This document shows positions 10,703 to 61,656 of a DNA stretch of 64,000 bases, one piece after another (within the stretch, counting starts at the first letter, position 1; every line of letters starts with the position of its first letter). A program made the translations under genes and the position numbers. Origin of the DNA: Deltaproteobacteria bacterium. GTDB lineage: Bacteria; Myxococcota_A; Polyangia; HGW-17; JAJRWW01. The notes under the pieces are model-generated. The model saw nothing but the letters and a program-made list of their open reading frames with translations. It did no database searches and was not told where the DNA came from. The stretch spans positions 6,462 to 70,461 of the forward strand of contig JAOZUO010000013.1 in NCBI GenBank assembly GCA_029938605.1. The letters are read 5' to 3'.

Positions 10703-12274
10703 ATGAGACGCTTTCTATTGTGCGGGATGATCATCGTCGTCGCGGCCGGGGCGGGGGCCTGCGACGCCGACAGCTCCACTGCCCTTGGTGACACCGAGAA
10801 CTGTACCAACGGCGCCGACGATGACGGGGATGGTGCCGTCGACTGCGGGGACGCCGATTGCCACGGCCACGCCTACTGTCTGGCCTACTCCGAGTACAAC
10901 TGCGACAACGGCGCGGACGACGACGGCGACGGCCTCTACGACTGCGACGATCCGGACTGCCAGCAGACGTCCGCGTGCGACCCCACCCGGGAGTGGCATT
11001 GCCACGACGGCGTGGACAACGACAGCGACGGCCGCACCGACTGCGACGACCCGGACTGCCTCGAAGCCTGCACGGAGCTCTGCGACGACGACGTGGACAA
11101 CGACAACGACGGCCAGATCGACTGCGCCGACTCCGACTGCTTCAGCGAGGAAGGCTGCCACGCCGGAGATGAGATCTGCCGCAACGGCGAAGACGACGAC
11201 GGCGACGATCTGACCGACTGCGACGACCCGGACTGCGCGGACCTGCCTACCTGCACTCCCGTGGAGATCTGCAACAACGATGGCGTGGACGACGACGACG
11301 ACGGCCTCGCCGACTGCGCCGACCCCGACTGCTTGGACAATCCCTACTGCCAAGAGCTGCTGTGCGACGACGGCGTGGACAACGACGCAAACGGCCTGGT
11401 GGACTGTGACGACGCCGTGTGCGTCGGCATGGCCGGCTGCATCCCCAGCCCCAACTGCGTCCCCTCAGAGCCGCTGACGTGCGGGGACATCATCGACGGC
11501 AGCACCGTCGGCCGCCTTAGCAACTTCGACACCTACCAATGCCTACCGGGCAGCTTCGTCGGCGGTGAGCGCTACTACCTCATTACGCCGGACCCCGGCC
11601 AGGCCGTCACCGTCGCGCTCAACGACTACTCATGGAACGAAGATCTGCGGCTCATCGTGTCGTCCACTAACGACTCGGCGGGCGGCTGCGACCCCTCCAA
11701 CCCCTGTACCATCTCGAGCGATACCATCGCCGCGGATCAGGAGGTGACAACCGACGTGGACTCCACCACCAACCTGTGGGTTATCGTCGACAGCGACACC
11801 GCGGGCGGCGGACTCTTCGATCTCGAGGTAGTCTGCTTGCCGTTGCACGAGTTGGACTGCGACGATGGATGGGATGACGACGGCGACGAGCTGATCGACT
11901 GCATGGATCCAGACTGCGCCAACACCGCAACCTGCTCATACACCTGGGCCGACGCCGGCGTCGAATGCCAGGACCCCACCGATTGTATCCCCTCGCCCAG
12001 TCACTTCTGTCGACAACCGCCGGGCAACCCCGGCGCCGAGGGCTTCTGCTCCCGGGAGTGCAGCACCCTCGGCGAACTGGATGGTCAGTGTGCCCCCGGC
12101 GACCCTGGTCTGCATGGCTACTGCTTCGGGGAAAACGGCGGTGGCGGCTTCTGCGGCTACCCCTGCGGCCCCGGCTTCGCCGGCATGTACCAGTGCCCCT
12201 CCGACTGGCACTGCATCAACCCCGTCGACGGCTCCATCACCAACATTGACTACGGCGTCTGCACGCCGAACTAG
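10703..12274 (+). CDS. Cys/Asp-rich repeat lipoprotein (CxNGxDDDxDGxxDCxDxDC repeats plus PPC-like domain)
   Basis: Lipobox AGAGAC; about 8 CxD/NGxDxDxDGxxDCxDxDC units; AGGAG RBS upstream. Confidence 0.85.
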   Translation: MRRFLLCGMIIVVAAGAGACDADSSTALGDTENCTNGADDDGDGAVDCGDADCHGHAYCLAYSEYNCDNGADDDGDGLYDCDDPDCQQTSACDPTREWHCHDGVDNDSDGRTDCDDPDCLEACTELCDDDVDNDNDGQIDCADSDCFSEEGCHAGDEICRNGEDDDGDDLTDCDDPDCADLPTCTPVEICNNDGVDDDDDGLADCADPDCLDNPYCQELLCDDGVDNDANGLVDCDDAVCVGMAGCIPSPNCVPSEPLTCGDIIDGSTVGRLSNFDTYQCLPGSFVGGERYYLITPDPGQAVTVALNDYSWNEDLRLIVSSTNDSAGGCDPSNPCTISSDTIAADQEVTTDVDSTTNLWVIVDSDTAGGGLFDLEVVCLPLHELDCDDGWDDDGDELIDCMDPDCANTATCSYTWADAGVECQDPTDCIPSPSHFCRQPPGNPGAEGFCSRECSTLGELDGQCAPGDPGLHGYCFGENGGGGFCGYPCGPGFAGMYQCPSDWHCINPVDGSITNIDYGVCTPN

Positions 12275-30336: not shown

Positions 30337-32343
30337 CTACACCAGCAGATCGATGACGCGCTTTCCAAAGGCCGCGGGGTCCGGGAGCGGTGAGCCCTCG
30401 GCGAGGAGGGCCTGACCGAAGAGGAGGTGGGCGTAGTCGGCCAGGCGATCGTCCTTGGCGTCGGCGTCGGCGTCGAAGATGGACTGCAGCTTCTCGAGCA
30501 CCGGATGGTTGGCGTTGAGCTCGAGGATCCGCTTGGGCACGGGGACCTCCTGGCCGGCCTGCTTGAGGAGCTGAGCCATGTGAGCGCTCATGTCGTTCTC
30601 CTCCCCCACCAGGCAGGTCGCCGACTCGGTGAGGCGCGTGGAGAGGCGCACCTCCTTGATGTGCTCGTCAAGGGTGGACTGCAGAGCCTCGAAGAGCGAT
30701 GCGTGGGTCTTTTGCGCCTCCTCGCGCTCGGCCTCCGCCGCCTTCTTCTCCTCGTCGCTGCCCAGATCCACGGCGCCCTTGCCCACAGACTGCAGCTTCT
30801 TGCCCTCGAACTCGTGCAGCACGTTGACCAGGATCTCGTCCACGGGATCGGTGAGCAGCAGGACCTCAATTTCCTTGTCGCCGAATGCCTCCATGTGCGG
30901 CGACCGCTCCACTGCTTCCCGGCTGTCGCCGGTGATATAGTAGATAACCTCCTGATCCTCACCCATGCGCGACACGTAGTCGGCCAGGGAGGTGAGGTCC
31001 GAGGCGTGGTGCGACGACCCGAAGAGCAGCAGGGGCTTGAGCCGGTCCGCGTTGTCGTTGTCGGTGCTGATGCCCTCCTTGAGGGCCTTTCCAAAGACGG
31101 TCCAGAATTTGAGATACTTCTCAGCGTCTTCGGACTGCAGCTGGGCGAGCTCGTCGAGCACCTTGCGCACGATGCGTTTTTTGATGAGGCTCACATGACG
31201 GTCCTGCTGCAAAAGCTCCCTCGAGACGTTCAGCGACAGGTCCGGCGAGTCCACCACGCCCTTGACGAACCGCAGGTACTGCGGCAGCAGTTCCTCCGCT
31301 TGATCCTTGATGAGCACCCGATTCACATAGAGCTGCAGCCCAAAGGGGGTGTCGTACTGGAATAGGTCGAAGGGCGCCCGCTCCGGAAAAAACAGCAGCG
31401 CCGTATACTCGAAGGTCCCCTCGGCCTTGAGGGTGACCACGTGCAACGGGTCCGTCCAGTCGTGGGAGATGTGCTTGTAGAACTCGTTGTACTCCGCAGC
31501 CAGGACCTCGGACTGGGGCCGGGTCCAGATGGCCTTCATGGAGTTCAGGGTCTCCCAGGTCTTCACTTCCCGGGTCTCGGGCTCCGCGTCGTCCTTCGCG
31601 TCGTCCTTTGCGTCGTCCTTCGCGTCGTCCTTTGCGTCGTCGTCTGTGGATGCCTCACCGGAGACCGTCTCGGTACGCGTGGTCTGCAGCTTGATGGGGT
31701 AGGTGACGAAGTCGGAGTACTTCTTGACGATGGAGCGCAGGGAGTGCTCGGCGACGAAGTCGTTCATTCCGTCTTCGGCGTCGGCGGACTTGAGGCGTAG
31801 GGTCACCGTGGTGCCGGCCTCGTCGCGGGTTCCGTCAGACACCTCGAAGGATCCGTCTCCGGTAGACGTCCACCGCGTCGCGCCATCTTCCCCGGCCTTG
31901 CGCGTCACGACGGTCACCTCGTCGGCCACCATGAACGACGCATAAAAGCCTACGCCGAACTGCCCGATGAGGGTATCGAGGGTGGACTGGCTCTCGCCCT
32001 GCTCCTTGGCCTCGGCGAGTTGATCTTCGAATTCCCGTGTGCCTGACCGGGCGATGGTGCCCAGATCTTCGATGGCCTCGTCCCGGGACATGCCGACGCC
32101 ATTGTCCCAGACGGTCAGGGTGCGGGACTCGTCGTCGGCCTCCAGACGGATCTCGTACTCCCCCGACGGTGCGAGGTCCGTATCGGTGAGCGCGGCGAAC
32201 CGGCGCTTATCGATGGCGTCGGAGCTGTTGGAGACCAGCTCTCGCAGGAAGATCTCCTTGTTCGAGTACAGGGAGTGGATCACGATGTCCAAGACCCGGC
32301 GGGCCTCGGACTTGAAGGTATGTGTCTCGGCGTTTTTGCCCAT
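30337..32343 (-). CDS. htpG: Chaperone HtpG (Hsp90)
   Basis: HSLYSNKEIFLRELVSNSSDA, DNGVGM, LGTIARSGT, IGQFGVGFY, FVKGVVDSPDLSLNVSRE, ILELNANHP. Confidence 0.97.
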   Translation of the reverse strand: MGKNAETHTFKSEARRVLDIVIHSLYSNKEIFLRELVSNSSDAIDKRRFAALTDTDLAPSGEYEIRLEADDESRTLTVWDNGVGMSRDEAIEDLGTIARSGTREFEDQLAEAKEQGESQSTLDTLIGQFGVGFYASFMVADEVTVVTRKAGEDGATRWTSTGDGSFEVSDGTRDEAGTTVTLRLKSADAEDGMNDFVAEHSLRSIVKKYSDFVTYPIKLQTTRTETVSGEASTDDDAKDDAKDDAKDDAKDDAEPETREVKTWETLNSMKAIWTRPQSEVLAAEYNEFYKHISHDWTDPLHVVTLKAEGTFEYTALLFFPERAPFDLFQYDTPFGLQLYVNRVLIKDQAEELLPQYLRFVKGVVDSPDLSLNVSRELLQQDRHVSLIKKRIVRKVLDELAQLQSEDAEKYLKFWTVFGKALKEGISTDNDNADRLKPLLLFGSSHHASDLTSLADYVSRMGEDQEVIYYITGDSREAVERSPHMEAFGDKEIEVLLLTDPVDEILVNVLHEFEGKKLQSVGKGAVDLGSDEEKKAAEAEREEAQKTHASLFEALQSTLDEHIKEVRLSTRLTESATCLVGEENDMSAHMAQLLKQAGQEVPVPKRILELNANHPVLEKLQSIFDADADAKDDRLADYAHLLFGQALLAEGSPLPDPAAFGKRVIDLLV
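31586..31640 (-). repeat. 12-nt in-frame repeat encoding (DDAK)x4 in the HtpG charged linker
   Basis: gcgtcgtcctty units. Confidence 0.85.
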
Positions 32344-33635: not shown

Positions 33636-33651
33636 TGGCACTGCAATTGCT
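33636..33651 (+). promoter_or_regulatory. Consensus sigma54 (-24/-12) promoter
   Basis: TGGCAC-TGCAA-TTGCT (GG-N10-GC); GGAGG RBS and ATG at 33699 follow. Confidence 0.85.
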
Positions 33652-46046: not shown

Positions 46047-46598
46047 TCACAGCGGCAACCGCAACCCATCGGTGAGCAGCACCGTGCAGTAGCGGCAGAA
46101 AGACGCCTGCTTGTGATCGAGCTGCTCGAGGGAGTGGGCGAAGCTCATGGCGCACTGCTTGTCGTCACAGTGGGTGAGCCCAAAAGTGTGACCGAGCTCG
46201 TGGACGGCCTCCTTGAGGACCCGATCCCGCAAGACGCGGTACGCCACGATTCCGCCCGCGGAATCGGCCGACAGACGATGGATGGAGACGACGGCGGCCT
46301 TCCCCGGTAGCATGGCCTCGCCGTAGACGTAGGTGAGGATGGGAATGAACAGATCCAAACCGGTCAACCCCAGGATGCGCACACACCCGGGCGGGGCGTG
46401 GTCGGCGAGGTGGTGGAGCAGCTCCGTCGACAGGTGCTGACCCCGGTTGGGCTTGAAGGCTTCGGGAGGCACCTCTGAGGCTGCAAGGATCTGCGCGGGC
46501 AACGGAAAGATCAGACGCAGGGGCCCGGCCAGCCCCTCCACGAGATCGGGATCCATCGCGCCGAAGGGCTTGAGGCCCAGGAAGGGTGCCTGGACCAT
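46047..46598 (-). CDS. Archaemetzincin (M54) zinc metalloprotease
   Basis: YVYGEA, EAVHELGHTFGLTHC..CAMSF..LDHK..FCRYC. Confidence 0.9.
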   Translation of the reverse strand: MVQAPFLGLKPFGAMDPDLVEGLAGPLRLIFPLPAQILAASEVPPEAFKPNRGQHLSTELLHHLADHAPPGCVRILGLTGLDLFIPILTYVYGEAMLPGKAAVVSIHRLSADSAGGIVAYRVLRDRVLKEAVHELGHTFGLTHCDDKQCAMSFAHSLEQLDHKQASFCRYCTVLLTDGLRLPL

Positions 46599-46599
46599 G

Positions 46600-47952
46600 C
46601 TATTGGTCTGACGGCTTCTTCAGCCCGTACTTTTTAATGCGGTTGTACAGGGTTACCCGATCGATACCCAGCAGCGCCGCCGATCGGGTGATATTCCACG
46701 AAAGGTCCTCGAGCACCTCGATGATGTGCGCCTTCTCCATCTCCTGGATGGACCGGTCCTGGGGCACGTAGGCCTGCTCCTGTTGGTAAAAGGGCAGAGA
46801 GGTCGCCCCGATCTCCCTCCCCTGTCCGATGACCACGGACCGCTCGATGGCGTTCTCCAGCTCCCGCACGTTGCCCGGCCAGTCGTGGAGCATCATCTCG
46901 TCAAAGGCCTCCCGGGAGATCTTGTCCACGGGTTTGTTCAGCTCCCTGGCAAACCGCTTCAGGAAGTGCTTGGCCAGGATCGGGATGTCCTCCTTCCGCT
47001 CCCGCAGGGGCGGCACGTGGATGGCGATGACGTTCAACCGATAGAACAGGTCCTGGCGGAAGCTGCCCTCGGAGATGGCCTGGGCGAGGTTGCGGTTGGT
47101 CGCGGCGATCACCCGAAAGTCCAGGTCGATGCGCTGGCTCCCCCCGACGCGGTAGAAGTGCTTTTCGTCTAGCACCTTGAGCAGGTCGATCTGCATCTTC
47201 ATGCCGACCTCGCCCACCTCATCGAGAAACAGCGTCCCGCCCTGGGCCAGCTCAAAGCGGCCCTTGCGCAGGTGCACGGCGCCGGTGAAGGCGCCCTTTT
47301 CGTGACCAAAGAGCTCGCTCTCGAGCAGATGCTCGGTGAAGGCGCCGCAGTTGACGGCGATGAAGGGACAAGCCGCCCGGGGAGATTGGGCGTGGATGGC
47401 CTTGGCAACCAGACCCTTGCCCGTGCCCGTTTCGCCGGTAATGAGCACGCTGGTGTCGGTCTCGGCCACGCTGAGAATCAGCTCAAAGACCTTCTCCATG
47501 GCGGCCGAGCCGCTGACCAGGCTCTCGAGGCGCTGGCGACTTTGGACCTGCTCTTTGAGGATCTCGTTCTCTTCGGCCAGCTTTTGGTGTCCGATGATCC
47601 GCTCGATGAGCACACTGATCTCGGCGGGATCGAAGGGCTTGAGCAGGTAGTCGTGGGCGCCCCTCTTCATGGCCAAAACGGCCGTATCGATGGAGCCAAA
47701 AGCGGTAATCATCACCACGGCGAGCTCAGGATCGTCCTGCTGAAGGTGGCCTAACAGCTCGATGCCATCCATGCCGGGCATCTTGATATCGAGGAAGATG
47801 ATGTTGTAGCGGCGCGCCTTGAGCAGCTCCAGGGCCGCCTCGGCGCTGGAGGCCTGATCCACCTCGTAGCCGTCCATCTGCAGCCAGCCGGCGAGGGACT
47901 CGCGCACGATCTCTTCGTCGTCGACTATAGCGATCCGCGCCTTCTTCTTCAT
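46600..47952 (-). CDS. Sigma54-dependent response regulator (NtrC/AtoC type: REC-AAA-HTH)
   Basis: [79 protein letters not shown]. Confidence 0.96.
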
Positions 47953-47970
47953 AGGAGTCCCTCTTGCTTC

Positions 47971-49515
47971 TTAGGAAACTTCGCTTCGATACACCGGCAA
48001 TGTCACCAGGAAGGTGGTTCCCTCGGGGCCGGTCTGCTCCACCTCCACCTGGCCGTTGTGCTCCTTGACGATACCGTAGACCACGCTCAACCCCAACCCC
48101 ACCCCCTTGCCCTCGGACTTGGTGGTAAAAAACGGCTCGAAGATGTGCGGTAGGCTCTCGGGCCCAATCCCCGGACCGGTATCGGTGATGCGGGTGAGAA
48201 GCAGGTCCGATTCTTCATCGTATTGGGTCGACAGCAGGAGCCGTCCATCGGTCTCGGGGCCCATCTCATCTACGGCGTTGAGCAGGATGTTCATGAAGAC
48301 CTGCTCGAGCCGGCTGACATCTCCAAGCACGGGTGGCAGATCCCCCTGAAAATCCCGGACGAGCTGGATCTTGTTGAGTGCCAGGTGGTGCGCGTTGAGC
48401 TCTGTGATCAGGTCCAGGATCTCGTTGAGCTGCGCCTCGGCGGGCTCGAGCTTGGACTGCCGGGCAAAGGCCAGCAGGTTGGAGACGATCTTGGAGCAAC
48501 GCGCCGTCTCGTTCTCCATGAGACCGAGCTGGCCGAGGATCGTCTTACACATGTCCTGGGAGGGCTCGAGCTCGGTGAGCATGCGTCGCTGCAGCCGGAT
48601 GAAGTTCAGCACCCCGGTGAGCGGATTGTTCAGCTCGTGCACCACCGACGCCGAGAGCTTGCCCAAAGAGCTCATCTTGTCCTGCTGCAGGAGCTTGCAG
48701 TGGGCCTCCTCGATCTGCCGGGTCCGCTCTTCAACGGCGCGTTCCAGCTCCTGGGTCATTCGCTCCTGGGAGCGATGTCTCTCGGTGATGTCCCGACAGA
48801 TCTCGATGAACCGCGTCACCTTGCCCTCCATGTTCCGTAGCGGATAGAGGGTCAGATCCACGATGCGCTCCTCGCCATCGAGGTTGTAGTGGGTGTGCAT
48901 CTCGTGGTGGGGCTCTCCGGTCTTCAAGATCTCGTCAATGGGGCACGGATGATCCGGAGGCTGACAGGGCTGCTCGGAGTGATGGAACACCTCGTAGCAC
49001 TTGCGCCCCACCACCTCCTGGGCAAGGAGCCCGGACTGATCGAGGTACGGGGTGTTGACCTGCACGACGTTGTGCTCCCGGTCGATGACCACGATCCCCT
49101 CGAGGATTCCATTGATGATGGTCTCGAGCTGATCCCGCTGGGCCTTGTAGCGATTCTCCTCGACCTGGTAGGTGTCACGGATGAGCGCCGCGGTGTTGTA
49201 GGCCATCACGCGGGTGCTGGCGGGCCGCCTGGCGAGCACCTCCTCCAGGACCGCCTCGTCAGGTGTGAAGATGAAGATCTGGTTCACCTCCACTTTGTCG
49301 GCATCGAAGTAGTCGTGAAAGTCGGCAGTGGTGTACAGCCCCTTGTCCCGGGCATAGACCATGCCCACGGCGTCTGCGTCGGGGTCGGCCACAGCCACGT
49401 ACTCGCCGTGCACAAGCCGCGACTTGTAGTGCCGAAAGGCCCGGGTCAGCATGTCGCGACACATCTCACCGCCACCGATGATACCGATGCGCAGCCAGAG
49501 CCTGCCCGGCTCCAT
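47971..49515 (-). CDS. Cytoplasmic sensor histidine kinase: Rossmann-like N-domain, PAS, HisKA, HATPase
   Basis: IGIIGGG..VAVADPD; PAS with GRKCYEVFH..PC..CP; VVHELNNPL; NILLNA; DTGPGI; FEPFFTTK..GVGLGLS. No TM segment. Confidence 0.92.
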   Translation of the reverse strand: MEPGRLWLRIGIIGGGEMCRDMLTRAFRHYKSRLVHGEYVAVADPDADAVGMVYARDKGLYTTADFHDYFDADKVEVNQIFIFTPDEAVLEEVLARRPASTRVMAYNTAALIRDTYQVEENRYKAQRDQLETIINGILEGIVVIDREHNVVQVNTPYLDQSGLLAQEVVGRKCYEVFHHSEQPCQPPDHPCPIDEILKTGEPHHEMHTHYNLDGEERIVDLTLYPLRNMEGKVTRFIEICRDITERHRSQERMTQELERAVEERTRQIEEAHCKLLQQDKMSSLGKLSASVVHELNNPLTGVLNFIRLQRRMLTELEPSQDMCKTILGQLGLMENETARCSKIVSNLLAFARQSKLEPAEAQLNEILDLITELNAHHLALNKIQLVRDFQGDLPPVLGDVSRLEQVFMNILLNAVDEMGPETDGRLLLSTQYDEESDLLLTRITDTGPGIGPESLPHIFEPFFTTKSEGKGVGLGLSVVYGIVKEHNGQVEVEQTGPEGTTFLVTLPVYRSEVS

Positions 49516-49605
49516 CGCCTTCTCCTTCACCTTGGACTCTTGCTTGGATCCCAAGTCAGCCCTCCCCACCTGCCCGCCAACTGCGGCCGCGTTCGGGACT
49601 CGCCC

Positions 49606-50547
49606 CTACACCTCGGGTCGCGGCAACACCTTGGCCAGCTCTGCGATCTCGGGCACCTTGTGCTCCCACTCGATGGCCATGAGGTGCACTCCGGCGACGC
49701 CCTCCATCTCCTTGAACTCCTCGATCTGCTCGCAAGCCATCTTGATGCCTTCGGCGGCCTTCTTGCCCTTGGGGGCGGCCTTGAGCCGATCAATGACCGA
49801 ATTGGGCACGTCCATACCCGGCACCTTCGACTTCATATAGCGCGCCATACCGACGCTCTTCATGGGGGTGACCCCGGCGAGGAGGTAGCACTTCTCGGTG
49901 AGGCCCATGTCCACAGCCTGTTTCACGAACTCCCGGAAGCGCTCCATGTTGTAGATGCACTGGGTCTGAACGAAGTCCACGCCGGCCGCCACTTTTTTGG
50001 CCAGCCGGTGCGGCCGCCACTTGTGGGGCTCGGCGAAGGGGTTACACGCCGCTCCGATGAACATCTTCGGCGGCTCCTCGATGTCGTCCCCTCCCAGAAA
50101 TTTGCCCTCATCCCGCATGGTCTTGACCATGTTAATGAGCTGCATGGAGTCGATGTCGAAGACCCCCTTGGCCTGGGGATGATCCCCGAACTTCTGGTGA
50201 TCCCCCGACAGACACAGCAGGTTCCGGATGCCCAGGGCCGAGGCGCCCAGGATGTCGGCCTGCATGGCCAACCGGTTGCGGTCCCGACACACCATCTGGT
50301 AGTTGGGCTCGAGGCCCTCTTGGATGGCGATGAGCCCCGCGGCCCAACTCGACATACGCACCATGGCCGTCTGGTTGTCGGTGATGTTCACCGAGTCCAC
50401 CATGCCGATGAGATGCTTGGCCTTGTCCCGCACCTCTTGGGCGCTGCTGCCCCGGGGCGGGCCGAGCTCACCGGTAAACGCAAAATGCCCTGCCCTAAGC
50501 ACCTTCTCCAGGTTGCTTCCCGACTTGAAGTTATTGTCAGAACCCAT
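49606..50547 (-). CDS. metF: Methylenetetrahydrofolate reductase
   Basis: FTGELGPP, NITDNQTA, CRDRNRLAMQADILGA, LCLSGDH, AGVDFVQTQ, GVHLM. Confidence 0.93.
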   Translation of the reverse strand: MGSDNNFKSGSNLEKVLRAGHFAFTGELGPPRGSSAQEVRDKAKHLIGMVDSVNITDNQTAMVRMSSWAAGLIAIQEGLEPNYQMVCRDRNRLAMQADILGASALGIRNLLCLSGDHQKFGDHPQAKGVFDIDSMQLINMVKTMRDEGKFLGGDDIEEPPKMFIGAACNPFAEPHKWRPHRLAKKVAAGVDFVQTQCIYNMERFREFVKQAVDMGLTEKCYLLAGVTPMKSVGMARYMKSKVPGMDVPNSVIDRLKAAPKGKKAAEGIKMACEQIEEFKEMEGVAGVHLMAIEWEHKVPEIAELAKVLPRPEV

Positions 50548-50559
50548 GTCTGAACTCCT

Positions 50560-51234
50560 TTATTGCTCGGACTCGGGCTTCTTGTAGCCGGGTTGGATAG
50601 TGGTTCTCGGTACCTGGTTCTCGTGCTCCCGGGCCGGCGTGAAGGCGATGATGCCGTCGAGACGCCCTTGCTTCTCGAGCCGCTCGTAGATCATGTGCCA
50701 GGCGCAGTCCTGGTCGTCCGAGATCTCGCACTTGCCGTGGTTCGTTCCACCGCAGGGACCGTTGTACAGGGACTTGGCGCACATGGTCACCGGGCAGACG
50801 CCGCCGGTGACACCGAGCACACAGCTCGAACAGGAGCGGCACCGCTCCTCGTACCAGCCCACGCCCTGGTTCACACCGATGAAGGTGGTGTCCACCATCG
50901 GAAGCACGGGCGTCTCGGGAAAGCGCTCAGCGAGGAACTGCACCCCCGCCCCACAGGCCATGGTGAGCAACGCGTCGTACCCCTCCACCTTGTCGTCGAG
51001 CACCTCGAGGTACTCCCGATCACACTGCCGCTCCACGGTGATGCTGTCGATGTCGATGGGCTCTTTGCTCAGGCGACGAGCCATGTCGATCTCGGCGGAC
51101 AGGACGTCCACCTCTTTCTCGCCACCGACCAGGCACACCGCCACACAGGTGCCACAGCCGACATTGAGCACCTTCTTATAAGGGCCGATGAGGTCCTTGA
51201 TCTCCTCGAAAGGCTTTCGCTTGCCAACGATCAT
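50560..51234 (-). CDS. metV: MetV-type small MTHFR subunit (Zn/Fe-S)
   Basis: GCGTCVAVC, RQCD, ACGAGVQ, C..C..C.LG.TGG.CP.T.CAKSLYNGPCGG, DCAW. Confidence 0.9.
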   Translation of the reverse strand: MIVGKRKPFEEIKDLIGPYKKVLNVGCGTCVAVCLVGGEKEVDVLSAEIDMARRLSKEPIDIDSITVERQCDREYLEVLDDKVEGYDALLTMACGAGVQFLAERFPETPVLPMVDTTFIGVNQGVGWYEERCRSCSSCVLGVTGGVCPVTMCAKSLYNGPCGGTNHGKCEISDDQDCAWHMIYERLEKQGRLDGIIAFTPAREHENQVPRTTIQPGYKKPESEQ

Positions 51235-51261
51235 TTTTTTACCTCTCGCACGGGGGCGCTC

Positions 51262-52593
51262 TTAGACTTCAAACACTTCTATCTCGTCGTGGAACACATT
51301 GACCTTCTTGAGGTCGGGCCCCAGGTACGCCCGCTCCTTGGGAGACAGGATACCCAGGGCGAGGCACAAAATAGTCCAGAAGTGCACCACATGGTAGCCA
51401 CCTCCAAAGTGCTCACTCAGATCGTGGATTTGGGCGTGGCAGTTGTGGCAGCCGGCGATGACGTAGGTGGCGCCGGTCTCCTTGATCTGATCGTCCTTGA
51501 TCTTGCCGTAGCCCCGCCGCTCCTCGGGGAATCCCGACTGCAGGAACCCACCACCCCCGCCGCAGCAGTAGTTGTTGGACTTATTGGGCTGCATGTCGAT
51601 GAAGTTCTCCTCACCGATGCAGGCCTTGAGAGCGTAGCGCAGATCGTCGGCGATGGCGTCACCGAAGCTCTTGCGCACGATCTGGCAGGGATCCTGAAGC
51701 GTAAACTTGATCTTCAGATCCTTGTTCCAGTCAGAGTTGGGCTTGAGCTTTCCTTCGCGAATCCACTTCGCGTAGTACTCATAGATGTTCTTAACTTCAA
51801 AGTTGTGCGGAATGTTGAACTTGTTCAGTCCGGCCCGGACTGCAAATGTTACGTGGCCTCACTCCGTGTTTAAGAATATCTTGCAGCCTAACTTGTCAGT
51901 CACCTCCGCGGCCTTGCGGGTGATGTGCTCCCACCCCTCATCGTCGGCCATGAACAGACAATAGTTTTCCGCGGCCCAGGCGGTCTTCGGATAGGTCCAG
52001 GACGCGCCCACCTGGTGCAGGATCTTCCACAGAGGCACCATCTCGTCGGGCTCGGTCATGGGCTCCCGAGAGTTCTGGTTCACCAGGAAGTGGGCCCCCT
52101 CCTTATCTAAGGGAGCCTCCAGGTCCTTGAACTCGGGCTGGTCGGTCTGCGTCTCCTCGAGCACGTCATTGACGATCCACTCAAAGTCCTCGGGGCTCGT
52201 ACCCATGGCGCTCAAGGATTCATTCGCCAGCGCCGCGTCGCAGGAGTGCAAGATGCCCTTGGGGCGCTCGGACCGTGGGACCTTCTGCCGCAGCTTGTAG
52301 ATCATCTGCGGGATGTCGATCTGCATGGGACACACCCGGCTACAGCGCTGACACATGCTGCAGAACCACGGCCACCTGGAGGCGAGGATCTCCTCGTCCA
52401 TGCCCAGGCTGAGCATCCGTAGGAACTTGCGCGGATCCATGTCGTCAAACGATGACGAGGGACACCCCGATGAGCAGAGCCCACAGGTGAGGCACAGGTT
52501 CAGGTTGCCCTGGGGCAACATTTCGCGCAGCTCGTCCAAAAGGTTCGGTTTGCGCTTTCCACCTAGCTTGATCGCCGTCTCAGCCATTTTCAT
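51262..52593 (-). CDS. HdrD-like Fe-S oxidoreductase (two 4Fe-4S motifs plus CCG domains), selenoprotein, 443 aa
   Basis: CLTCGLCSSGCP and CSMCQRCSRVCP; TGA 51859-51861 reads NTE-U-GH (the ECGH position) and the frame continues to QDPC, YCCGGGGG and GCHNC. Confidence 0.9.
51826..51842 (-). promoter_or_regulatory. Bacterial SECIS hairpin for the HdrD-like gene
   Basis: CAGUCCG-GGC-CGGACUG, 7 bp Watson-Crick stem, 16 nt after UGA. Confidence 0.8.
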
Positions 52594-52607
52594 CCCCTTT
52601 GCGGGAG

Positions 52608-53036
52608 TTATTCATCTTTGTTCTGGGCGGTGCCGAGCGGGCTCGGGCCCACCTCTTTGATGTACGCCGTCATCTCCTTGGCGTAGGCCGCGAATGTCGG
52701 CCCCTCACCCGAGGAGAGGTTGTACATGCGCACCCGCTCTTTTTCCATGCCCATCTCGTCGAGCATGGACTGCACGTGCTCCACCCGCTCGCGGCACCGG
52801 AGATTCCCGGCGTTGTAGTGACAGGTACCCTCCAGGCAGCCGACGCAATAGACCCCGTCGGCGCCTTTCTGAAAGGCCCGCAGCATCAACATCACGTCCA
52901 CCTTGCCCGTGCAGGGCACGCGCACGATCCGCACGTTCGCCGGATACTCCAACCTCATCGAACCTGCCAGGTCCGCGGCTGAGTAACCTCAGAACTCGCA
53001 GCAAAATGCAATGATCGTCGGTTCGAACTCGCTCAT
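52608..53036 (-). CDS. mvhD: MvhD/FlpD [2Fe-2S] subunit, selenoprotein, 142 aa
   Basis: MSEFEPTIIAFCCEF-U-GYSAADLAG..RVPCTGKVD..GCLEGTCHY; TGA 52989-52991; ATG overlaps the hdrA stop. Confidence 0.9.
52960..52974 (-). promoter_or_regulatory. Bacterial SECIS hairpin for short mvhD
   Basis: GGACCU-GGC-AGGUUC, 6 bp stem, 14 nt after UGA. Confidence 0.75.
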
Positions 53037-56000
53037 CCCGTTTTCTCCGCCAAAAGTCCATCTACCTTACTGATCAGTTGGTCGTCTTCATAGAAGCCGA
53101 GCTGGATCGTCTGGCGGGGGCACACACAGGCGCACACCCCGCAGCCGTGGCACATGGCCTCGTCGATCTTGATCAGCTTTTCGTTGTTGTCGAACACCGG
53201 CACGTCGAAGGGGCAATTTCGCACGCAGGTCAAACACTTCACGCAGTGGTCGGTGTCCACCTTGGCCGTAATGGCCGAGAGCTTGATCTCGGGCTTGGCC
53301 AGGAACGTAGTGGCCCGGGAGGCCGCCGCCTGGGCCTGGGCAAGCGTCTCGGTGATCAGCTTGGGCCCGTGGGCCGTGCCACACAAAAAGATGCCCGCGC
53401 CCGGCATGTCCACCGGACGCAGCTTCACGTGGGCCTCCATGAAGTAGTTCTCTAGATTCGTGTTGAGCTTCATGGTCCGACACAGCGTCTCGGTGTCGGC
53501 TGCACGCAGCCCGGCGCTCAGGGTCACCAGATCCGCCTCAATGGCCACCTGCTGCCCCAGGATGTGGTCCTTGACCCGAACCACCAGCCCATCACCGCTC
53601 TTCTCCACGATCGGCGGCTCCTCCTCCTTGAACCGGATGAAGATAACGTCCTTTTCCCGAGCCTCCCGATAGTAGTCCTCCATCTGACCGTAGGTGCGGA
53701 TGTCCCGGTACAGCACGAACACCTGGGTGTCCGGGCTCTGCTCCTTGATGGCCAACGCGTTCTTCACCGCGTTCTGGCAGCAGATGCGCGAGCACTCCTG
53801 CATCTCGTCGTTGCGGGAGCCCACGCACTGGATCATCACCACCGTGTCAACATCCGCCACGCCCTTTTCGGCGATCCGATCGGAGAGATCGAGCTGGGTG
53901 ATCACCCGCTCGTCGTCACCAAAAAGATACTCGGTGGGCTCGTACTCCACCGCTCCGGTGGCCACCACGATGGCGCCGTGGTCGATGGACCGCTTGTCCC
54001 CGCCCACTGCCACCTCCGTGGTGAAGTTGCCCTGGTACCCGCCAAAGCCCACCACCTCGGCGCCTAGGAGCACCTCGATCTTCTCGGCCCCCGACACGTC
54101 CGCCACGAGCTTGGCCACAAAGGCCTGCACGTCGGCGCCCTCGATGGTGTGGTGCAGTCGGCGCGCCAGACCACCGAGGCTGTCTGTCTTTTCGAGCAGC
54201 ACCACCGGGAAGCCCTGTCGCTCCAGGTTCAGCGCCGCGGTCATGCCCGCCACGCCCCCACCCACCACCAGGGCCTTCTGGTTCACCGGGATGCGCTTCT
54301 CCTCCATGGCCTTGAGCGTCCGAGCCCGCGCCACCGCCGCCCGGACGAGGTCCTTCGCCTTTTCGGTGGCGGTGTCCGGGGTCTTGGAGTGGATCCAGGA
54401 GTTCTGGTTCCGGATGTTGGCCATCTCGAACAGATAGCGGTTCAGGCCGCAGGCCTCCAGGGTCTCCATGAACATGCCCTCATGGGTCTTGGGGCTACAA
54501 GAAGCCACAACGACCCGATTGAGCCCCTGTTCGATGATCATCTCCTTGATCTTCTCCTGCGTATCCTGGCTGCAGGTGAAGAGGTTGGAGTCAGTGAACA
54601 CCACGTTGTCGAGGGTCCCGGCGTACTCCTGCACGGCGGGCACGTCCACCACGCCGCCAATATTGATGCCGCAGTTGCAGACAAACACCCCGATGCGGGG
54701 CTCCTGGTGGGCGACCTCCTTTTGTTCGGGCAGGACGATGGTCTCCACGTCCGTTCCCCGAGCCGCCGACAGGTCGGCCCCCGCCAGGCAGGCCGCCGCG
54801 CTGGCCTCGGTGACGCTCTCCGGAATGTCCTTGGGCCCCTGGAACACGCCACACACGTAGATGCCGGGCTGGTTGGTCTCCACCGGCGCCAGGGGATCGA
54901 TCTTGGCGTACTTGTACTTGTTGAGTTCCACCCCCAGGCGATCCGCCAACCGCGTGGCGTCCTCGGGAATGGTGAGGCCCACCGACAGGACCACCATGGA
55001 GAACTCGTCCACACAGACCTTGCCCTCCTCGTCCACATAGCGGACAGACAGGTCCCCGGTCTCGTGGTTCTCGTCGATGGTATGCACCCGGGCCTTGACG
55101 TACCGCACCCCCTCTTTGTCCCGGGCGCGCATGAAATACTTCTCGTAGTCCTTGCCGTAGGTGCGCATGTCCATGTTGAACACCACCGCGTCCAGATCGC
55201 CGTGGATATGCTCCTTGGCGATCATGGCCTCCTTGGTGGCGTACATGCAGCAAACCGACGAGCAGTAGCCGTTCCCGCACTGGTTCGTGTCGCGGGAGCC
55301 GATGCACTGCAGCCAGGCGATGGACTTGGGCTCGGCGCGATCCAGGGGGCGCATGATGTGGCCGTAATACGGCCCGCCCGCCGACAGGATCCGCTCGAAG
55401 CCGTCAGAGGTGACGACGTTGGCGAACTTCCCGTAGCCCAGGTGATCGAGGCCCGCCGGGTCGAAGGGCTTGGTGCCCGGAGCCAGGATGATGGAGCCCA
55501 CCTGCACGTCCGTCTGGCGCACCTTGTCGTCGTAGGCCACCGCGCCGGCGAGACACATGTTCTCGCACAGGCCGCAGCCCACGCAAGCGTCCATGTCGAT
55601 GGCGTAGGCGAGGGGCACCGCCTGGGCGTACTCGATGTACGTGGCGGCGCGGTCGTTCATGCCCTTGTTGATCGTGTTGATCGCCGCGATGGGGCAGTGG
55701 CGCGCGCAGTCGCCACAACCGGTGCACTTGTCCGCATCGATGTAGCGTGGGTTGTTCTGCAGCGATACCTGGAAGTTGCCCGGATCTCCGGACAGACCAG
55801 CGACCTCGCTGTTGGTAATCAGCTCAATGTTCTCGTGCCGGCCGACCTCGACCAGTTTAGGTGAGATTACTCACATCGTACAGTCGTTGGTCGGGAACGT
55901 CTTGTCCAGGCGGGCCATGAGCCCACCGATGGTCGGTCCTTTCTCCACCAAGTACACTTTGTAATCAGAATTTGCGAGATCGAGGGCGGCCTGCATGCCG

Positions 56001-56056
56001 GCGATACCAGCTCCCACCACCATTACCGATCCGCTCAAATTGTCCTGATTAGCCAT
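53033..56056 (-). CDS. hdrA: Heterodisulfide reductase subunit A-like flavoprotein, selenoprotein, 1007 aa
   Basis: [27 protein letters not shown] (TGA 55871-55873); the frame stays open through 70 more codons into ORF 53033..55660; WLQCIGSRD..CSSVCC; VVGGGVAG; C-terminal ferredoxin motifs. Confidence 0.93.
55838..55855 (-). promoter_or_regulatory. Bacterial SECIS hairpin for hdrA
   Basis: CUGGUCG-AGGU-CGGCCGG, 7 bp including two GU pairs, 15 nt after UGA. Confidence 0.75.
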
Positions 56057-56065
56057 GGTCTCTCC

Positions 56066-56815
56066 TCAAAGCGCTGCGAACACCGGGATGGACTCCTCCA
56101 TGCCTGTAAACTCGACCAGCTTCTTCTGCTCGAGATCGGCCAGGAGGTAGGACACCCGTAAGACTTCAATTTCGGTTTGCTCAGCCACCTGCCGCACCGA
56201 GGTGGTGCCGGACTTGATGGCCAGATAAATGAGGCTCTTCTGATACTCCCGCAAAAGCGCGTCGTCGAGCACCTGCTGGAGCTTCTCTTCCTTCCAGGGG
56301 CGCCCGTAGACGTCGCCCGCCGAGGTGATCTTGTGCTGCTTGCCCACCAACCACCGCATCACCTCGCCCTTGACCACCATCTCGGCGGCCCGAAGTTGCA
56401 AGTCGTACTTCGACACATCCAGGGGGCCGCGCTTCCGCACGGCCTCGGTGGCCTCGGTGACGATCTCGGTGAAGCGCTTGGCCTCGGCCGACGAAACCCA
56501 GTCCACATGGAGCCGGTCTCCGCCGATGCCCGTGAGCTCCAGCAACTGCTGGGTCATCGCCATCTTCTTTTCGGCCTGAACATTACCTTCCAGGTAATGG
56601 CAATCGCCGATCAGTCACCCGGCGACAAGGGCGCCGTCCACCCCGTCTCGGAAGGCCTGAACAATGAACGCGGGGTCCACCCGGCCCGAGCACATGACCC
56701 GCACAGACCGCACGTTGGCCGGGTACTGCATACGCGATACCCCGGCCAGGTCGGCGCCGGCGTATGCACACCAGTTACAAAGGAAGGCGACGATTTTGGG
56801 TTCGAATTCGTCCAT
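56066..56815 (-). CDS. mvhD: MvhD/FlpD with C-terminal helical/wHTH-like extension, selenoprotein, 249 aa
   Basis: [40 protein letters not shown] (TGA 56615-56617), joining ORF 56066..56563 in frame. Confidence 0.9.
56581..56599 (-). promoter_or_regulatory. Bacterial SECIS hairpin for long mvhD
   Basis: CAUUACCU-GGA-AGGUAAUG, 8 bp Watson-Crick stem, 15 nt after UGA. Confidence 0.8.
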
Positions 56816-56827
56816 CGGTAAAACCCT

Positions 56828-59800
56828 CTACACCACGGCCCGCACCGCCGCCTCGATCTGATGGAAGCGGAAGTGCAGCATGTCGATGGCCTCCTGGGGG
56901 CAAGAGGCGGCACAGAGACCGCACCCCTTGCAGGAAGCCTGAATATTCTTGGCTCGCTTGATCCCGTCGACCTCTTCGAGGTGGATGGCGCCAAAGGCAC
57001 AGACCTCCTCGCACAGACCGCACCCGATACACTTGTCGGGATCCACCTCAGATACGTAGGGCGAGATCTGGATCTGGTCCTTGGACAGGACCGTCACCGC
57101 CCGGCTCGCCGCCGCCATGGCCTGGGCGATGGACTCATCCATGGCCTTGGGGTAGTGCGCGAGGCCGGCCATGAAGAGGCCGTCCGAGGCGAAGTCCACC
57201 GGACGCAGCTTGGCGTGCGCCTCCATGAAGAACCGGTCCTCGGTGAGCGGGAGCTTATAGAAGGACGCGATATCCTCCGCCCGATTCGGCTCAATGGCCG
57301 TGGCCAGGTTGAGCAGATCCGTCTCGATCTCCACGGGCGCCCCGAGGATGGGATCGAAGACCTTGACGATCAAGCCATCGCCCGCGGCCACCACCTCCGG
57401 CTTACGATCGAGCGCGTACCGGATGAAAATCACCCCCAGCTCGCGCGCCTGTTTATAGAGGGCCTCGCGCTCGCCGAAAGTCCGGATGTCCCGGTACAGC
57501 ACGAACACGTTGGTGTCCGGCTTGTTCTGCTTGATATCGATGGCCATGGCCACAGTGGTGGAGCAACAGATCCGCGAGCAGTAGGGACGCGGATCGTTGC
57601 GGGACCCCACGCACTGAATGAAGGTCACCGTGTCGGCCTTTGCCAGCTTCTGTGGATCCTGCTCCAGATCGTGCCACCGGGTCACGGCCGGGTGCTGCCC
57701 GTAGAGGTACTCCTCGGTGTCGGTGGGCGCCCCTCCCGTGGCCACCACCACAGCACCGTGGCTGATGGTCTGGGGTCCTTTGCCGTTTTTCACCTCGGTC
57801 TCGAAGTTGCCCACGTAGCCCGAGGCGCCCAGCACCTCGGCGTCGGTCATCACGGTCAGGTTCTTGTGGCCCCCGACCCGCTCGATGAGACTGGTGAGAA
57901 ACGACTGAACATCCCGACCGTCGTGGGTGCGCTTCACATCGAGCGCCCGCCCACCGAGCTGGGAGGACTTCTCCACCAGCGTGGTGGGGAACCCCTGGTC
58001 GGCCAGGCCCAGGGCGGCGAACATGCCCGCCACGCCGCCGCCGATGACCAACGCCGCCTTGTCCACATTGACGGAGATGGGCTGGATGGACTCCAGCTCC
58101 CGGGCCCGAGCCACGCCCATCCTCACCAGGTCCTTGGACTTAGACGTGGCGAGATCCTTGTTCTCGGAGTGAACCCAGGTGCACTGGTTGCGGATGTTGG
58201 CCATCTCGAACAGGTGCGGGTTCAGGCCGGCGTTCTGCAGGGTAAACTGGAACAGCGGCTCGTGGGTCCGCGGCGTACAGGCCGCCACGACCACGCGGTT
58301 GAGCTTCTGCTCCTTGATGGTCTGGGTGATCTTCTCCTGGGTGTCCTGGCTGCAGGAGAACATGTTCTCCTCGGCGTACACCACACCGTCGAGCTCCTTG
58401 GCGTAGTCCACGATGGCCGGCACATCCGCGATGCCGCCGATGTTCAGGCCGCAGTTGCACACGAACACGCCTACCCGGGGCTCGTCGTCGGCCACGTCGA
58501 TCTCGGCGGGCAGCTCCAGGGTCCTGGTGAGCGTAGAGCGAGCCGGTGCCAACCCCGCGCCGGCGATGCAAGCCGCCGCGCTGGACTCAGCCACGGAGTC
58601 CGGGATATCCTTGGGACCGTTGAAGGCGCCACAGGCGAAGACGCCCGGTCGCGACGTGGACAGCGGAGTCAGGGAGTCGTGCTTCACGAAGCGGTTCTCG
58701 TTGAGCTCCACCCCGAGCCTCTCAGCCAGGGCCACGGCCTCGTCGGAGACCCGGAGCCCCACCGAGAGCACGACCATGTCGAACTGTTCGTCGACCACCT
58801 TGCCGTCCTCGGTGAAGTAGCGCAACCGGAGGTCCCCCGTGTCGCGCACCTCATCGATGGTATGCACCCGCGCCTTGACGAAGCGGACGCCGCTTTGGTC
58901 CTCCCCCCGGGTCAGGTACTTCTCGTACTCCTTGCCGAAGGTGCGCATGTCCATGTTGAAGATGGCGCAGTCGAGCTCGCCGTCAGCGTGCTCCTTGGCC
59001 ATCATGGCGTCCTTGACGGCGTACATGCAGCACACCGAGGAGCAGTAGCCGTTGCCGCAGCGGTTGGTGTCCCGCGAGCCCACGCACTGGAGCCAGGCGA
59101 TCTTCTTGGGCACCTGGTGGTCCGATGGGCGCGACAGGTGGCCCTCCGTGGGACCCGAGGCGCTGAGGATCCGCTCGAACTCCAGGCTGGTCATCACGTT
59201 GGGGTTGGACCGGTGGTGGTAGGTGTCCTCCATGCCCGATGGGTCGAAGGGCTCGATGCCCGCCGACAGGACCACCGCGCCCACCCGGATCTCCCGCTCC
59301 ACCTCCACCATGGAGTGGTCGATGGCGCCGGGAGCGCAAACGGTGACGCACTCCATGCAGTCGCTGCAGTACGAGCAGTTCAGGCAGCGGTCGGCCTCGG
59401 CCTGGCCCGCCTCGGGCTCGAACCCGAGCTCCACCTCGTCGAAGGTCGCGCGCCGGGACGCCGGCTCGAGCTCGGGCATAGAGGCCCGGGCAGCCTTGGG
59501 CATGTCGGTGGGCACCGGACGATAGATCGGATCGTCCTTGGTGATGGGAACGCGCCCATCGGCCATGTCCTTGCCGTCGATGAACCGGGAAATGGAGACG
59601 GCCGCCTCGCGCCCCGCGGCCACGGCGCCAATGGCGTTCCAGGGGCCCGTGTGGGCGTCACCGCCGGCGAAGACACCCTCCCGCGGTGTGGCGTAGGTGA
59701 CACCGTCGGCCTCGAGAGTCCCCCGGCGAGTGTACTCTACCTCTTTGTCGCCCTCGAAGGCGCTGAAGTCGGGCTGCTGTCCGATGGCCGCCACCACCTG

Positions 59801-61246
59801 GTCCGCCTCGAGATCAAACTCACTTCCCGGTACGGGTACAGGCCGCCGCCGGCCCGAGGAGTCAGGCTCGCCCAGCTCCATGCGGATGCAGCGCATGCCC
59901 TTGACCTTGCCGCCCTCCACCAGGATCTCCTGGGGCGCGGCCAGGTACTCGATCTGGACGTCTTCGGCCTCCGCCGCCTCGATCTCTTCCTCCCAGGCGG
60001 GCATCTCCGTACGGGTCCGCCGGTAGACGATCTGCACGGACTGGGCCCCGAGGCGAACCGCCGCCCGGGACACGTCGATGGCCACATTTCCGCCACCGAT
60101 AATGAGGACCTTCTTGCCCACCTGGGTCTTGCCCGTGAGGTTCACCTCACGCAGGAAATCCACACCCTGCCGCACGCCGTCAGCGTCGTCGCCCTCCACG
60201 GCGAGGTCGTAGCCCTTGTGGGCACCCACGGCCAGATACACGGCCTTATAGTCCTTGAGCAGGTCGTCCACCGTGAGATCCGGACCGAGGGGGGTGGAGG
60301 TCTTGATCTCCACGCCGAGGTTCGTGATGACCTCGATCTCCTGGTCGAGAATCGCCTCGGGCAGGCGGTGGTTCGGGATGCCCACCCGGAGCATTCCGCC
60401 CGCCTTGGGAAGGGCCTCATAGATGGTGGACTTGATGCCCTGGCGTGCCAGGTGGTAGGCCGCCGACAGGCCGGCCGGGCCGGACCCCACGATGGCCACC
60501 TTCTCGGGACGCTCCTCCATGCAGTCGATCTTCACCTGGCGGGGATCGAACTGATCCGCGGCCAGCCGCTTGAGCCGACAGATGGAGACGGGCTCGTCCA
60601 CGTCACAGCGCCGGCAGGCGTCCTCACACTCGTGGGGACAGATGCGCCCCAGGACGCCGGGGAGGGGCAGATCGTCCATGATGATCTCGAGGGCGCGCTC
60701 GTACTTGCCCTCCTTGACCATCTGCACGTAGCCCTGGACGTTGAGACCCGCCGGACAGGAGAGCCGGCAGGGCGCGCGATCCGTCTTCTGGATGGCGAAG
60801 ACGCCCGGGATGGCCTGGGCATACTTCTTATAAGCAGCCTTGCGGGTGCCGAGCCCTTCGTCGAACTCGTCTGGGAGCACAACGGGACAGACCTTCTCGC
60901 ACTCACCGCAGGAAGTACACTTGTCGAGATCCACGAAGCGAGGCTGGGTCCGCACCCGCGCGGAAAAGTTCCCCGGATCGCCCTCCAGGGCTTCCAGCTC
61001 GGTTCCCGTGAGCAACTCGATGTTCAGATGCCGGCCGACCTCGACCAGTTTAGGTGAAATAATTCACATGGTGCAGTCATTGGTGGGGAAGGTCTTGTCC
61101 AGCTTGGACATCACCCCACCAATGGCTGTGGACTTCTCCACCAGGTACACGTAGTAGCCAGATTCAGCCAGATCCAGCGCCGATTGCATGCCAGCAATGC
61201 CGCCGCCGACTACCATCACGGAGCCTGCAAGGTCCTGTTTGCTCAT
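56828..61246 (-). CDS. hdrA: HdrL-type large HdrA with inserted GltD/NfnB-like NAD(P)H module, selenoprotein, 1472 aa
   Basis: [19 protein letters not shown] (TGA 61064-61066); [21 protein letters not shown]; [11 protein letters not shown]; [13 protein letters not shown]; Hdr[16 protein letters not shown]; terminal ferredoxin motifs. Confidence 0.93.
61031..61048 (-). promoter_or_regulatory. Bacterial SECIS hairpin for hdrL
   Basis: Identical 18-mer to the hdrA SECIS, 15 nt after UGA. Confidence 0.75.
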
Positions 61247-61576
61247 CGTGTCGATCCTGCCTCTCGTCGTGATCCCAAACCGTCGGATTGCGCCAAATGA
61301 ACAGAATACAAACCACCCTGCCCCCTACAGCCGGGAACCAGGCGCCCCGAGCCGGTACCGCGCTGGTGAGTGCGGAAACGCTAACGTCGGGATATCCCTA
61401 TTCTAAAACCTATTTGTCAGCACAAACCGAATACAACTAACCACCTGAAATGAATAAACAAAATCCAGACGGTGGCCAGTGACAATATCCATAGCATGGT
61501 GGTAGTGAAGATCGCAAGGGGAAAAGGCCGGATCTTCCGGATTATTCAACTCCAATAGGAAAACAATGGTTTCTCT

Positions 61577-61600
61577 ATGTACTAGAAAACATTAGTACAT
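61577..61600. promoter_or_regulatory. Palindrome ATGTACTA-N8-TAGTACAT in AT-rich leader of the hdr operon
   Basis: Perfect 8-bp arms, about 330 nt upstream of the hdrL start. Confidence 0.5.
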
Positions 61601-61656
61601 TAAAAAGCCCCCTAAGTAGGTTTATATTCTCTGTTTTCCGTCGGGGATCTGGGAGC

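Follow-up and report, generated by a model that had tools for sequence, protein, structure and literature searches.

We analysed an operon of seven genes on the minus strand (49606-61246) of a 64,000-nt stretch of contig JAOZUO010000013.1, from an assembly labelled Deltaproteobacteria bacterium. This whole stretch is called the window below. The genes are closely packed, point in the same direction and follow one another in the order hdrL, mvhD1, hdrA2, mvhD2, an hdrD-like gene, metV and metF. Each of the five leading genes contains an in-frame TGA. We propose, with a probability of about 0.92, that the five UGA codons are genuine selenocysteine (Sec) codons recoded via SelB-type selenocysteine insertion sequence (SECIS) hairpins and that the module, together with MetVF, is most likely a bifurcating or confurcating oxidoreductase. 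The two parts are taken as one joint reading, and the insertion of Sec itself is something we infer from the sequence.

An earlier note, made from the DNA letters alone, had located one internal TGA in each of five genes and had stated that the frames run on to the expected C-termini. Its coordinates and motifs are all correct. When TGA is read as U, the five genes are complete, the count of internal TGA is one in each, and full-length domain architectures are recovered. The Sec codon of hdrL (61064-61066) specifies U61 within NDCTM-U-IISPK, and that of hdrA2 (55871-55873) specifies U62 within NDCTM-U-VISPK. In mvhD1 the codon (56615-56617) gives U67 in AG-U-LIGDCH, and in mvhD2 (52989-52991) it gives U16 in CCEF-U-GY. 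The fifth codon (51859-51861) corresponds to U245 of the hdrD-like product, in NTE-U-GH. Here and below, operon coordinates refer to features of the minus strand.

The earlier note had also placed every TGA where homologs carry Cys and had suggested an alignment with Cys homologues. Paralogues, homologues and solved structures agree that all five TGAs occupy Cys-equivalent positions. U62 of HdrA2 corresponds to Cys197 of 5odc_A (NDCSIC) and to a residue X in 9sfi_A (DDCAMX). U61 of HdrL lies in the same motif and is the equivalent of HdrA Cys197, which serves as a ligand to the N-terminal [4Fe-4S] cluster in the partner HdrA protomer (PMC9012536). Positions 16 and 67 of MvhD correspond to Cys16 and Cys67 of 5odc_D and to the two X residues of 9sfi_K. 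In these 9sfi chains, X is presumably Sec. The two MvhD paralogues mirror each other: in all the related loci described below, U67 of mvhD1 aligns with TGT or TGC in mvhD2 and U16 of mvhD2 with TGT or TGC in mvhD1. The position of U245 in the HdrD-like protein is occupied by an invariant Cys in homologues, found in 120 of 120 full-length sequences.

The related loci number 33 (L001-L033): 21 come from a species-representative genome collection, 10 from metagenomes and 2 from exact-protein look-ups. They represent at least 19 distinct assemblies, a few metagenome loci being duplicates of genome loci. In all five genes, TGA stands at the same codon in every orthologous copy that has this codon on the retrieved contig, and none of these copies has Cys at its own site. 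All five genes with all five TGAs are seen in L001 and L004, two metagenome-assembled genomes (MAGs) of Desulfobacterales type, as well as in L025 and L024. L025, a metagenome contig, is near-identical to L004 and probably derives from the same organism. Three further loci (L003, L012 and L026) are interrupted by contig ends, yet are consistent with the five-TGA arrangement. Shorter versions, hdrL-mvhD2-[hdrD]-metV-metF, are found in Desulfobulbales with TGA throughout, including the cultured Desulfopila sp. IMCC35006 and Desulfosediminicola flagellatus IMCC35005, the latter with a complete genome. Gene by gene, the amino-acid identity between the window and the L001, L004 and L025 operons lies at 50-81%.

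L024, a close relative of the window, has a GC content of 63%, 84-92% amino-acid identity over the operon genes (92% for metV) and the same kinase, regulator and M54 peptidase genes downstream. Synonymous sites differ by 24-41% between the two. The ratio of nonsynonymous to synonymous differences per site (pN/pS) is 0.04-0.20 upstream of the TGAs and 0.09-0.37 downstream; the comparison genes metV and metF give 0.11 and 0.16. The low pN/pS on both sides of the TGAs indicates that both halves of every gene are translated in one frame.

These data bear on the simplest objection, namely that the five genes are pseudogenes produced by independent nonsense mutations or that the TGAs are sequencing or assembly errors. 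Translation table 11 does split each gene, and the source is a metagenome assembly. However, the same TGA recurs in all orthologous copies with the codon on the contig, including those of cultured isolates and of the close relative, and each gene is under purifying selection downstream of its TGA. The earlier note had judged five independent nonsense mutations implausible, and the retention of the TGAs in orthologues together with purifying selection on both sides supports that judgement. It had also raised the possibility that reads would show TGC or TGT. In the best-matching metagenome run, a hydrothermal-vent sample (X1, 99% of sampled words) that is probably the source sample, a separate assembly repeats all five TGAs with no difference. 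A 1.7-kb contig from an independent cold-seep metagenome of another study (X2) shows 0 differences over 91 bases spanning the mvhD1 site (56615-56617). Conservation, selection and separate assemblies thus exclude pseudogenes and assembly errors, an explanation to which we give next to no credence.

Each Sec codon is followed, inside the coding sequence, by a hairpin of 7-8 bp with GG in a 3-4 nt loop (AGGU, GGA or GGC). The distance from the U of UGA to the start of the hairpin is 17-19 nt. The hdrL hairpin (61031-61048) has the sequence CUGGUCG-AGGU-CGGCCGG and starts at 19 nt; the hdrA2 hairpin (55838-55855) consists of the same 18 nt. The mvhD1 hairpin (56581-56599) is CAUUACCU-GGA-AGGUAAUG, with 8 bp. 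The mvhD2 hairpin (52959-52975) is CGGACCU-GGC-AGGUUCG and the hdrD hairpin (51825-51843) is CAGUCCG-GGC-CGGACUG. No SECIS-like hairpin was found after the two true TGA stops of the operon, those of mvhD1 and hdrA2. A bacterial SECIS is expected to form a stem-loop not far downstream of the UGA and to have a conserved G in its apical loop; the bSECISearch-type criterion attributed to Zhang and Gladyshev in 2005 reportedly places this loop 16-37 nt from the UGA.

The hairpins are frozen at the nucleotide level. We measured third-position entropy at conserved four- and sixfold degenerate codons in orthologues ranging from 47 to 64% GC. It amounts to 0.00-0.31 bit in the hairpins versus 1.12-1.57 outside. 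The individual values are 0.17 bit inside versus 1.43 outside for hdrL, 0.00 versus 1.15 for hdrA2 and 0.20 versus 1.57 for mvhD2. In the hdrD hairpin, the loop-closing G-C pair changes to U-A in relatives: G-C is present in 13 distinct sequences, U-A in 4, and the positions are unpaired in 0, at the cost of an Arg-to-Leu change. As a control, sliding the register of this hairpin lowers the paired cells from 87% to 12-49%. Where the Sec-type hdrD genes encode the hairpin peptide AVRAGL, Cys-type HdrD homologues encode HSTYSVWMG.

Sediment metagenomes add to this picture. In four of them, the summed contig depth jumps 5- to 50-fold over the UGA/SECIS stretches of the HdrA-type genes and of mvhD1, and Logan contigs break there. 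The stretches concerned are 55591-55923, 60919-61246 and 56580-56609, the jump being about 50-fold over the mvhD1 hairpin stretch. Many different organisms share them with at least 90% identity, as do hdrL and hdrA2 with each other. The depth jump therefore indicates that many sediment organisms share the UGA/hairpin stretches at the nucleotide level. The frozen hairpins CUGGUCGAGGUCGGCCGG, GGACCUGGCAGGUUC, CAGUCCGGGCCGGACUG and CAUUACCUGGAAGGUAAUG are handy nucleotide tags to find such genes in metagenomes.

Five sense-like TGAs inside 10 kb might also be accounted for if TGA coded for one of the standard amino acids throughout the genome, the situation of codes 4 and 25, an alternative that the earlier note had mentioned. 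TGA is however a normal stop codon here. Within the operon it ends mvhD1 and hdrA2, and elsewhere in the window it ends 12 of the 30 other genes. Homologues moreover have Cys at the aligned positions in every case, and not Trp or Gly. A scan of the 64-kb window for TGAs with coding-looking flanks on both sides picked up four of the five Sec codons, along with the mvhD1 stop and a pair of antisense artefacts. The mvhD2 TGA was missed, its 15-codon upstream flank being too short for the filter. This coding-flank scan of the 64 kb revealed no further read-through candidate. The use of TGA as a normal stop and the lack of extra candidates exclude a reassigned code, whose probability we consider negligible.

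A subtler alternative accepts recoding via the SECIS hairpins but supposes that the host mostly inserts Cys, through a mis-acylated tRNA-Sec, or that a near-cognate tRNA reads through. Its rationale is that selenium or part of the machinery could be limiting for a horizontally acquired module, and the module does look horizontally acquired. Against this, the five TGAs and their hairpins were kept between the window and L024 despite a synonymous divergence of about 30-40%, which argues for working decoding. In addition, if Sec brought no benefit, conversion of TGA to TGC or TGT would be expected. We regard this alternative as quite improbable and retain genuine Sec codons as the preferred reading.

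Several observations weigh against that reading. ARAGORN detected no tRNA of any kind in the window; on 14 related loci it detected no tRNA-Sec. A search for RNA-seq runs holding the stretch found none. A search against the Rfam SECIS families gave no match at either gathering or E-value thresholds. The folding energy of the 65-nt stretches following the UGAs is not significantly lower than that of shuffled sequences, except for mvhD1 (z = -2.5). As the hairpins are small, their support comes from conservation and not from thermodynamics. A profile search could not place Sec245 of the HdrD-like protein onto solved HdrB by sequence, only the C-terminal CCG domain being aligned. Finally, complex formation, substrate and direction of electron flow are inferred from gene neighbourhood and homology only.

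The gene identities are backed by Pfam. hdrL (56828-61246) encodes a protein of 1472 aa with Sec61. It is an HdrA-type flavoprotein in which a GltD/NfnB-like NAD(P)H module is inserted at residues ~152-648, and it has a second HdrA half. We use the name HdrL for an HdrA/glutamate-synthase fusion, as in PMC2702500. hdrA2 (53036-56056; genuine TGA stop at 53033-53035) encodes a double HdrA of 1007 aa with Sec62. Its first half contains the thioredoxin-reductase domain, which bears Sec62, and lacks an N-terminal domain. Its second half comprises an N-terminal FeS domain, a flavin-type domain without a Cys197 equivalent and a C-terminal ferredoxin domain; at the Cys197-equivalent position, relatives have Ala, Tyr or a gap. 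This layout matches the fused double HdrAs, including HdrA of the Moorella MetFV-Hdr complex, in which one half carries Cys197 and the other the N-terminal domain (PMC9012536). As to membership in the HdrA family, every domain (thioredoxin-reductase-like FAD domain, inserted and C-terminal ferredoxin domains, N-terminal FeS domain and Cys197 equivalent) aligns to 8rvu_a and 5odc_A. Scores against the NCBIfam HdrA2 model are 941-952, below the cut-off of 1100. The proteins are therefore HdrA family members that fall outside the methanogen equivalog.

mvhD1 (56069-56815; genuine TGA stop at 56066-56068) encodes an MvhD/FlpD [2Fe-2S] subunit of 249 aa with Sec67 and a C-terminal extension of ~115 aa. 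mvhD2 (52611-53036) encodes a canonical MvhD of 142 aa with Sec16, and its ATG overlaps the hdrA2 stop (ATGA). Both proteins match the MvhD/FlpD family PF02662 (168 and 163 bits, cut-off 22.3), show the Cys pattern C12/C13/C16/C42/C67/C72 and align one-to-one to 5odc_D. With the VhuD exception model NF045873 they score 139 and 166, below the cut-off of 215. The hdrD/glpC-like gene (51265-52593; TAA stop at 51262-51264) encodes an Fe-S oxidoreductase of 443 aa with Sec245. An HdrC-like part with two [4Fe-4S] motifs is fused to an HdrB-like CCG domain. PF02754 is matched with 41 bits (cut-off 20.6), Fer4_8/17 is also matched, and there are matches to HdrC and to the C-terminal domains of HdrB, with the CCG pattern C...CC...CxxC. 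Assignment of this protein as TmcB, HmcF or DsrK was rejected, the equivalog scores being far below the cut-offs. The last two genes have no Sec. metV (50560-51234; PF12225) encodes the small subunit of the MetVF methylene-tetrahydrofolate (THF) reductase and metF (49606-50547; PF02219) encodes methylene-THF reductase.

Downstream of metF, a PAS histidine kinase (47971-49569), a sigma-54 response regulator (46600-47970) and an archaemetzincin-like M54 peptidase (46047-46619) form a trio on the minus strand. Upstream of hdrL, the 410-nt intergenic region 61247-61656 is strongly AT-rich against the 64%-GC genome, and 71% conservation with L024 is observed over 193 nt. This region is probably the promoter/regulatory region of hdrL. 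A search for a sigma-54 promoter in it, allowing up to 2 mismatches, gave no match. Elsewhere in the window, the sigma-54 consensus is matched exactly at 33636-33650 on the plus strand, TGGCACTGCAATTGC. This site lies within a long open frame ending in a GcvH-like domain (residues 189-307) and may stand upstream of the true start of the GcvH-like gene.

Particular arrangements were seen in three of the related loci. In L024, ~4.3 kb of unrelated genes (L024:4952-9242; three open reading frames without Pfam match and a leucine-rich repeat (LRR) protein) part hdrL from mvhD1, so that hdrL is detached from the remaining operon. L001 has a second Sec-type hdrD copy after metF (L001:11338-12660), which brings its cluster to six Sec genes; the two copies do not differ over their 66 UGA-proximal nt. 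L022, a contig of 48% GC, contains tandem hdrD paralogues (L022:10001-13138), the first of Cys type (TGC at 10730) and the second of Sec type (TGA at 12551), which makes a neat Cys/Sec back-up pair.

The proposed mechanism is as follows. A small SelB-type SECIS hairpin located 17-19 nt downstream would recode each UGA, and the five Sec genes would be co-transcribed with metV-metF. The products would be HdrL, the double HdrA, two MvhD [2Fe-2S] electron-transfer subunits and an HdrD subunit of the HdrCB-fusion, CCG-domain type. metF and metV adjoin hdrA, mvhD and a gene of HdrB/C type, the junctions being short or overlapping, and this arrangement is kept in many loci. The complex would most likely be a flavin-based electron-bifurcating or confurcating methylene-/methyl-THF oxidoreductase in the Wood-Ljungdahl pathway's methyl branch. 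Through it, the methylene-/methyl-THF couple would be connected with NAD(P)H via HdrL, with ferredoxin and perhaps with a thiol/disulfide located at the CCG site. In this scheme, Sec would replace the Cys197 equivalent in the HdrA-type proteins, Cys16 or Cys67 in the MvhD paralogues and the invariant Cys in HdrD. The enzyme could be the Desulfobacterales counterpart of the MetVF-HdrABC-MvhD enzyme of Moorella and Sporomusa.

In Moorella thermoacetica and Sporomusa ovata, metV-metF are likewise associated with a fused double HdrA, MvhD and an HdrB/C-type subunit, and the role proposed for these complexes is electron-bifurcating or respiratory methylene-THF reduction (PMC5736913, PMC9430772, PMC9012536). 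In contrast to the present case, the descriptions given in these papers mention no Sec in the Hdr/MvhD subunits. HdrB and HdrC form separate proteins there or are fused in another way, and neither an HdrL with its NAD(P)H module nor a second MvhD is present, whereas the operon described here has an HdrCB fusion, HdrL and two MvhD. The solved Hdr/F420-non-reducing hydrogenase structures 9SFI and 9T1S show X at exactly the sites to which U62 of HdrA2, U16 of MvhD2 and U67 of MvhD1 align. They represent an archaeal heterodisulfide reductase/hydrogenase that reduces CoM-S-S-CoB, with both X in one subunit-delta chain, whereas here each MvhD paralogue has one Sec. From the alignment and from the VhuD with two Sec in a 2026 selenoproteome review, 9SFI/9T1S is taken to be a methanococcal VhuD-type enzyme.

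The earlier note had remarked that HdrA, MvhD and GlpC/HdrD-like selenoproteins were already known, and indeed they are catalogued (PMC2702500, PMC13188914). In Desulfobacterium autotrophicum HRM2, Sec-containing hdrA1/2, hdrL1/3, hdrD4 and mvhD1/2/3/5 are among 31 selenoproteins (PMC2702500). The protein types of this Desulfobacterales member are the same, and each hdrA or hdrL there is followed by mvhD. The host here, in contrast, has a high-GC (64%), Myxococcota-like genome and is no sulfate reducer. In the parts of PMC2702500 that were consulted, five Sec genes in a row beside metVF are not singled out. The 2026 review includes HdrA with the motif CxxU and MvhD/VhuD with two Sec positions, and it reports a four-selenoprotein-gene operon of Deltaproteobacteria composed of frhA-frhD-hdrA and glpC, the last encoding a GlpC-like Fe-S oxidoreductase (PMC13188914). 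That operon also clusters Sec genes of HdrA, FrhD/MvhD and GlpC-like type, with the same motifs. The present operon differs from it by having no hydrogenase large subunit frhA, by having two HdrA-type and two MvhD genes among its five Sec genes, and by its coupling to metVF.

In view of this four-gene operon and of the same five-Sec arrangement in L001, L004, L025 and L024, describing the operon as striking, as the earlier note did, was an overstatement. Its expectation that standard pipelines would call such genes pseudogenes holds in part. The deposited gene call of L022 cuts the Sec-type hdrD to 243 aa at the TGA; on the other hand, NCBIfam has 'exception' models for HdrA2 and VhuD. PGAP annotates known selenoproteins. 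There is no new mechanism and no new selenoprotein family. Since the selenoprotein families and the five-gene arrangement are already known, the novelty is modest and concerns the host, a Myxococcota-like MAG, uncultured and recovered from a hydrothermal-vent metagenome. In the literature collection searched, no paper combined Myxococcota, Wood-Ljungdahl and selenocysteine.

Several features of the window relate to the identity of this host. The GC content is 64%, and a Ser/Thr kinase, DUF4215 repeat proteins, an M64 peptidase and LRR proteins are encoded. Relatives of its HtpG that bear names come nearly all from Myxococcales, Myxococcota or Bradymonadia MAGs, at 57-60% identity, while the closest matches (73-91%) bear no phylum name. 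The same HtpG neighbourhood is found in L023, joined to the regulator and M54 pair. Within the HtpG protein itself (30337-32343, minus strand), the linker that follows the N-terminal ATPase domain contains an acidic insert of low complexity, DDDAKDDAKDDAKDDAKDDAE.

The operon probably has a different origin. In a MetV+MetF tree, the clade of the window and L024 is nested among Desulfobacterales sequences and is sister to L001 with moderate support (89/87); window, L024 and L001 belong to a fully supported Desulfobacterales/Desulfobulbales group. The kinase/regulator/M54 trio is downstream of the operon in Myxococcota-like genomes and divergently upstream in two loci of Desulfobacterales type (L026:1497-5242 and L031:1365-5235). 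The GC content at third codon positions of the operon genes, 0.78-0.88, is that of neighbouring genes. As judged from the sampled close relatives, the likeliest scenario is that the operon was horizontally acquired from Desulfobacterales and then adjusted to host codon usage. A more specific version can be put forward tentatively, at somewhat less than even odds. An uncultured Myxococcota lineage of vent, cold-seep and marine-sediment metagenomes would have acquired the five-Sec Hdr/MvhD-MetVF module and the kinase/regulator/M54 genes as one block from Desulfobacterales, ameliorated them and kept them under selection. Separately, L021 (JAFDIX010000104.1), labelled Myxococcota by the tree tool, has a three-Sec version (hdrL, mvhD2, metV, metF) in the other MetVF clade, which is more distant. 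Either such modules may have entered Myxococcota-labelled bins on more than one occasion, or the L021 bin may be misclassified.

For annotation, the five genes should be called full-length selenoproteins rather than ten fragments or pseudogenes. The operon is a clear case of several Sec genes in one transcription unit that has probably been transferred from one phylum to another, and it adds an anaerobic, selenium-dependent one-carbon (C1)/electron-bifurcation module to an uncultured Myxococcota-like lineage. If the acquisition as one block is true, the operon would be one gene longer than the four-selenoprotein-gene operon of PMC13188914, and it would place a strictly anaerobic, selenium-dependent C1 metabolism of Wood-Ljungdahl type in a phylum mainly known for aerobic predators.

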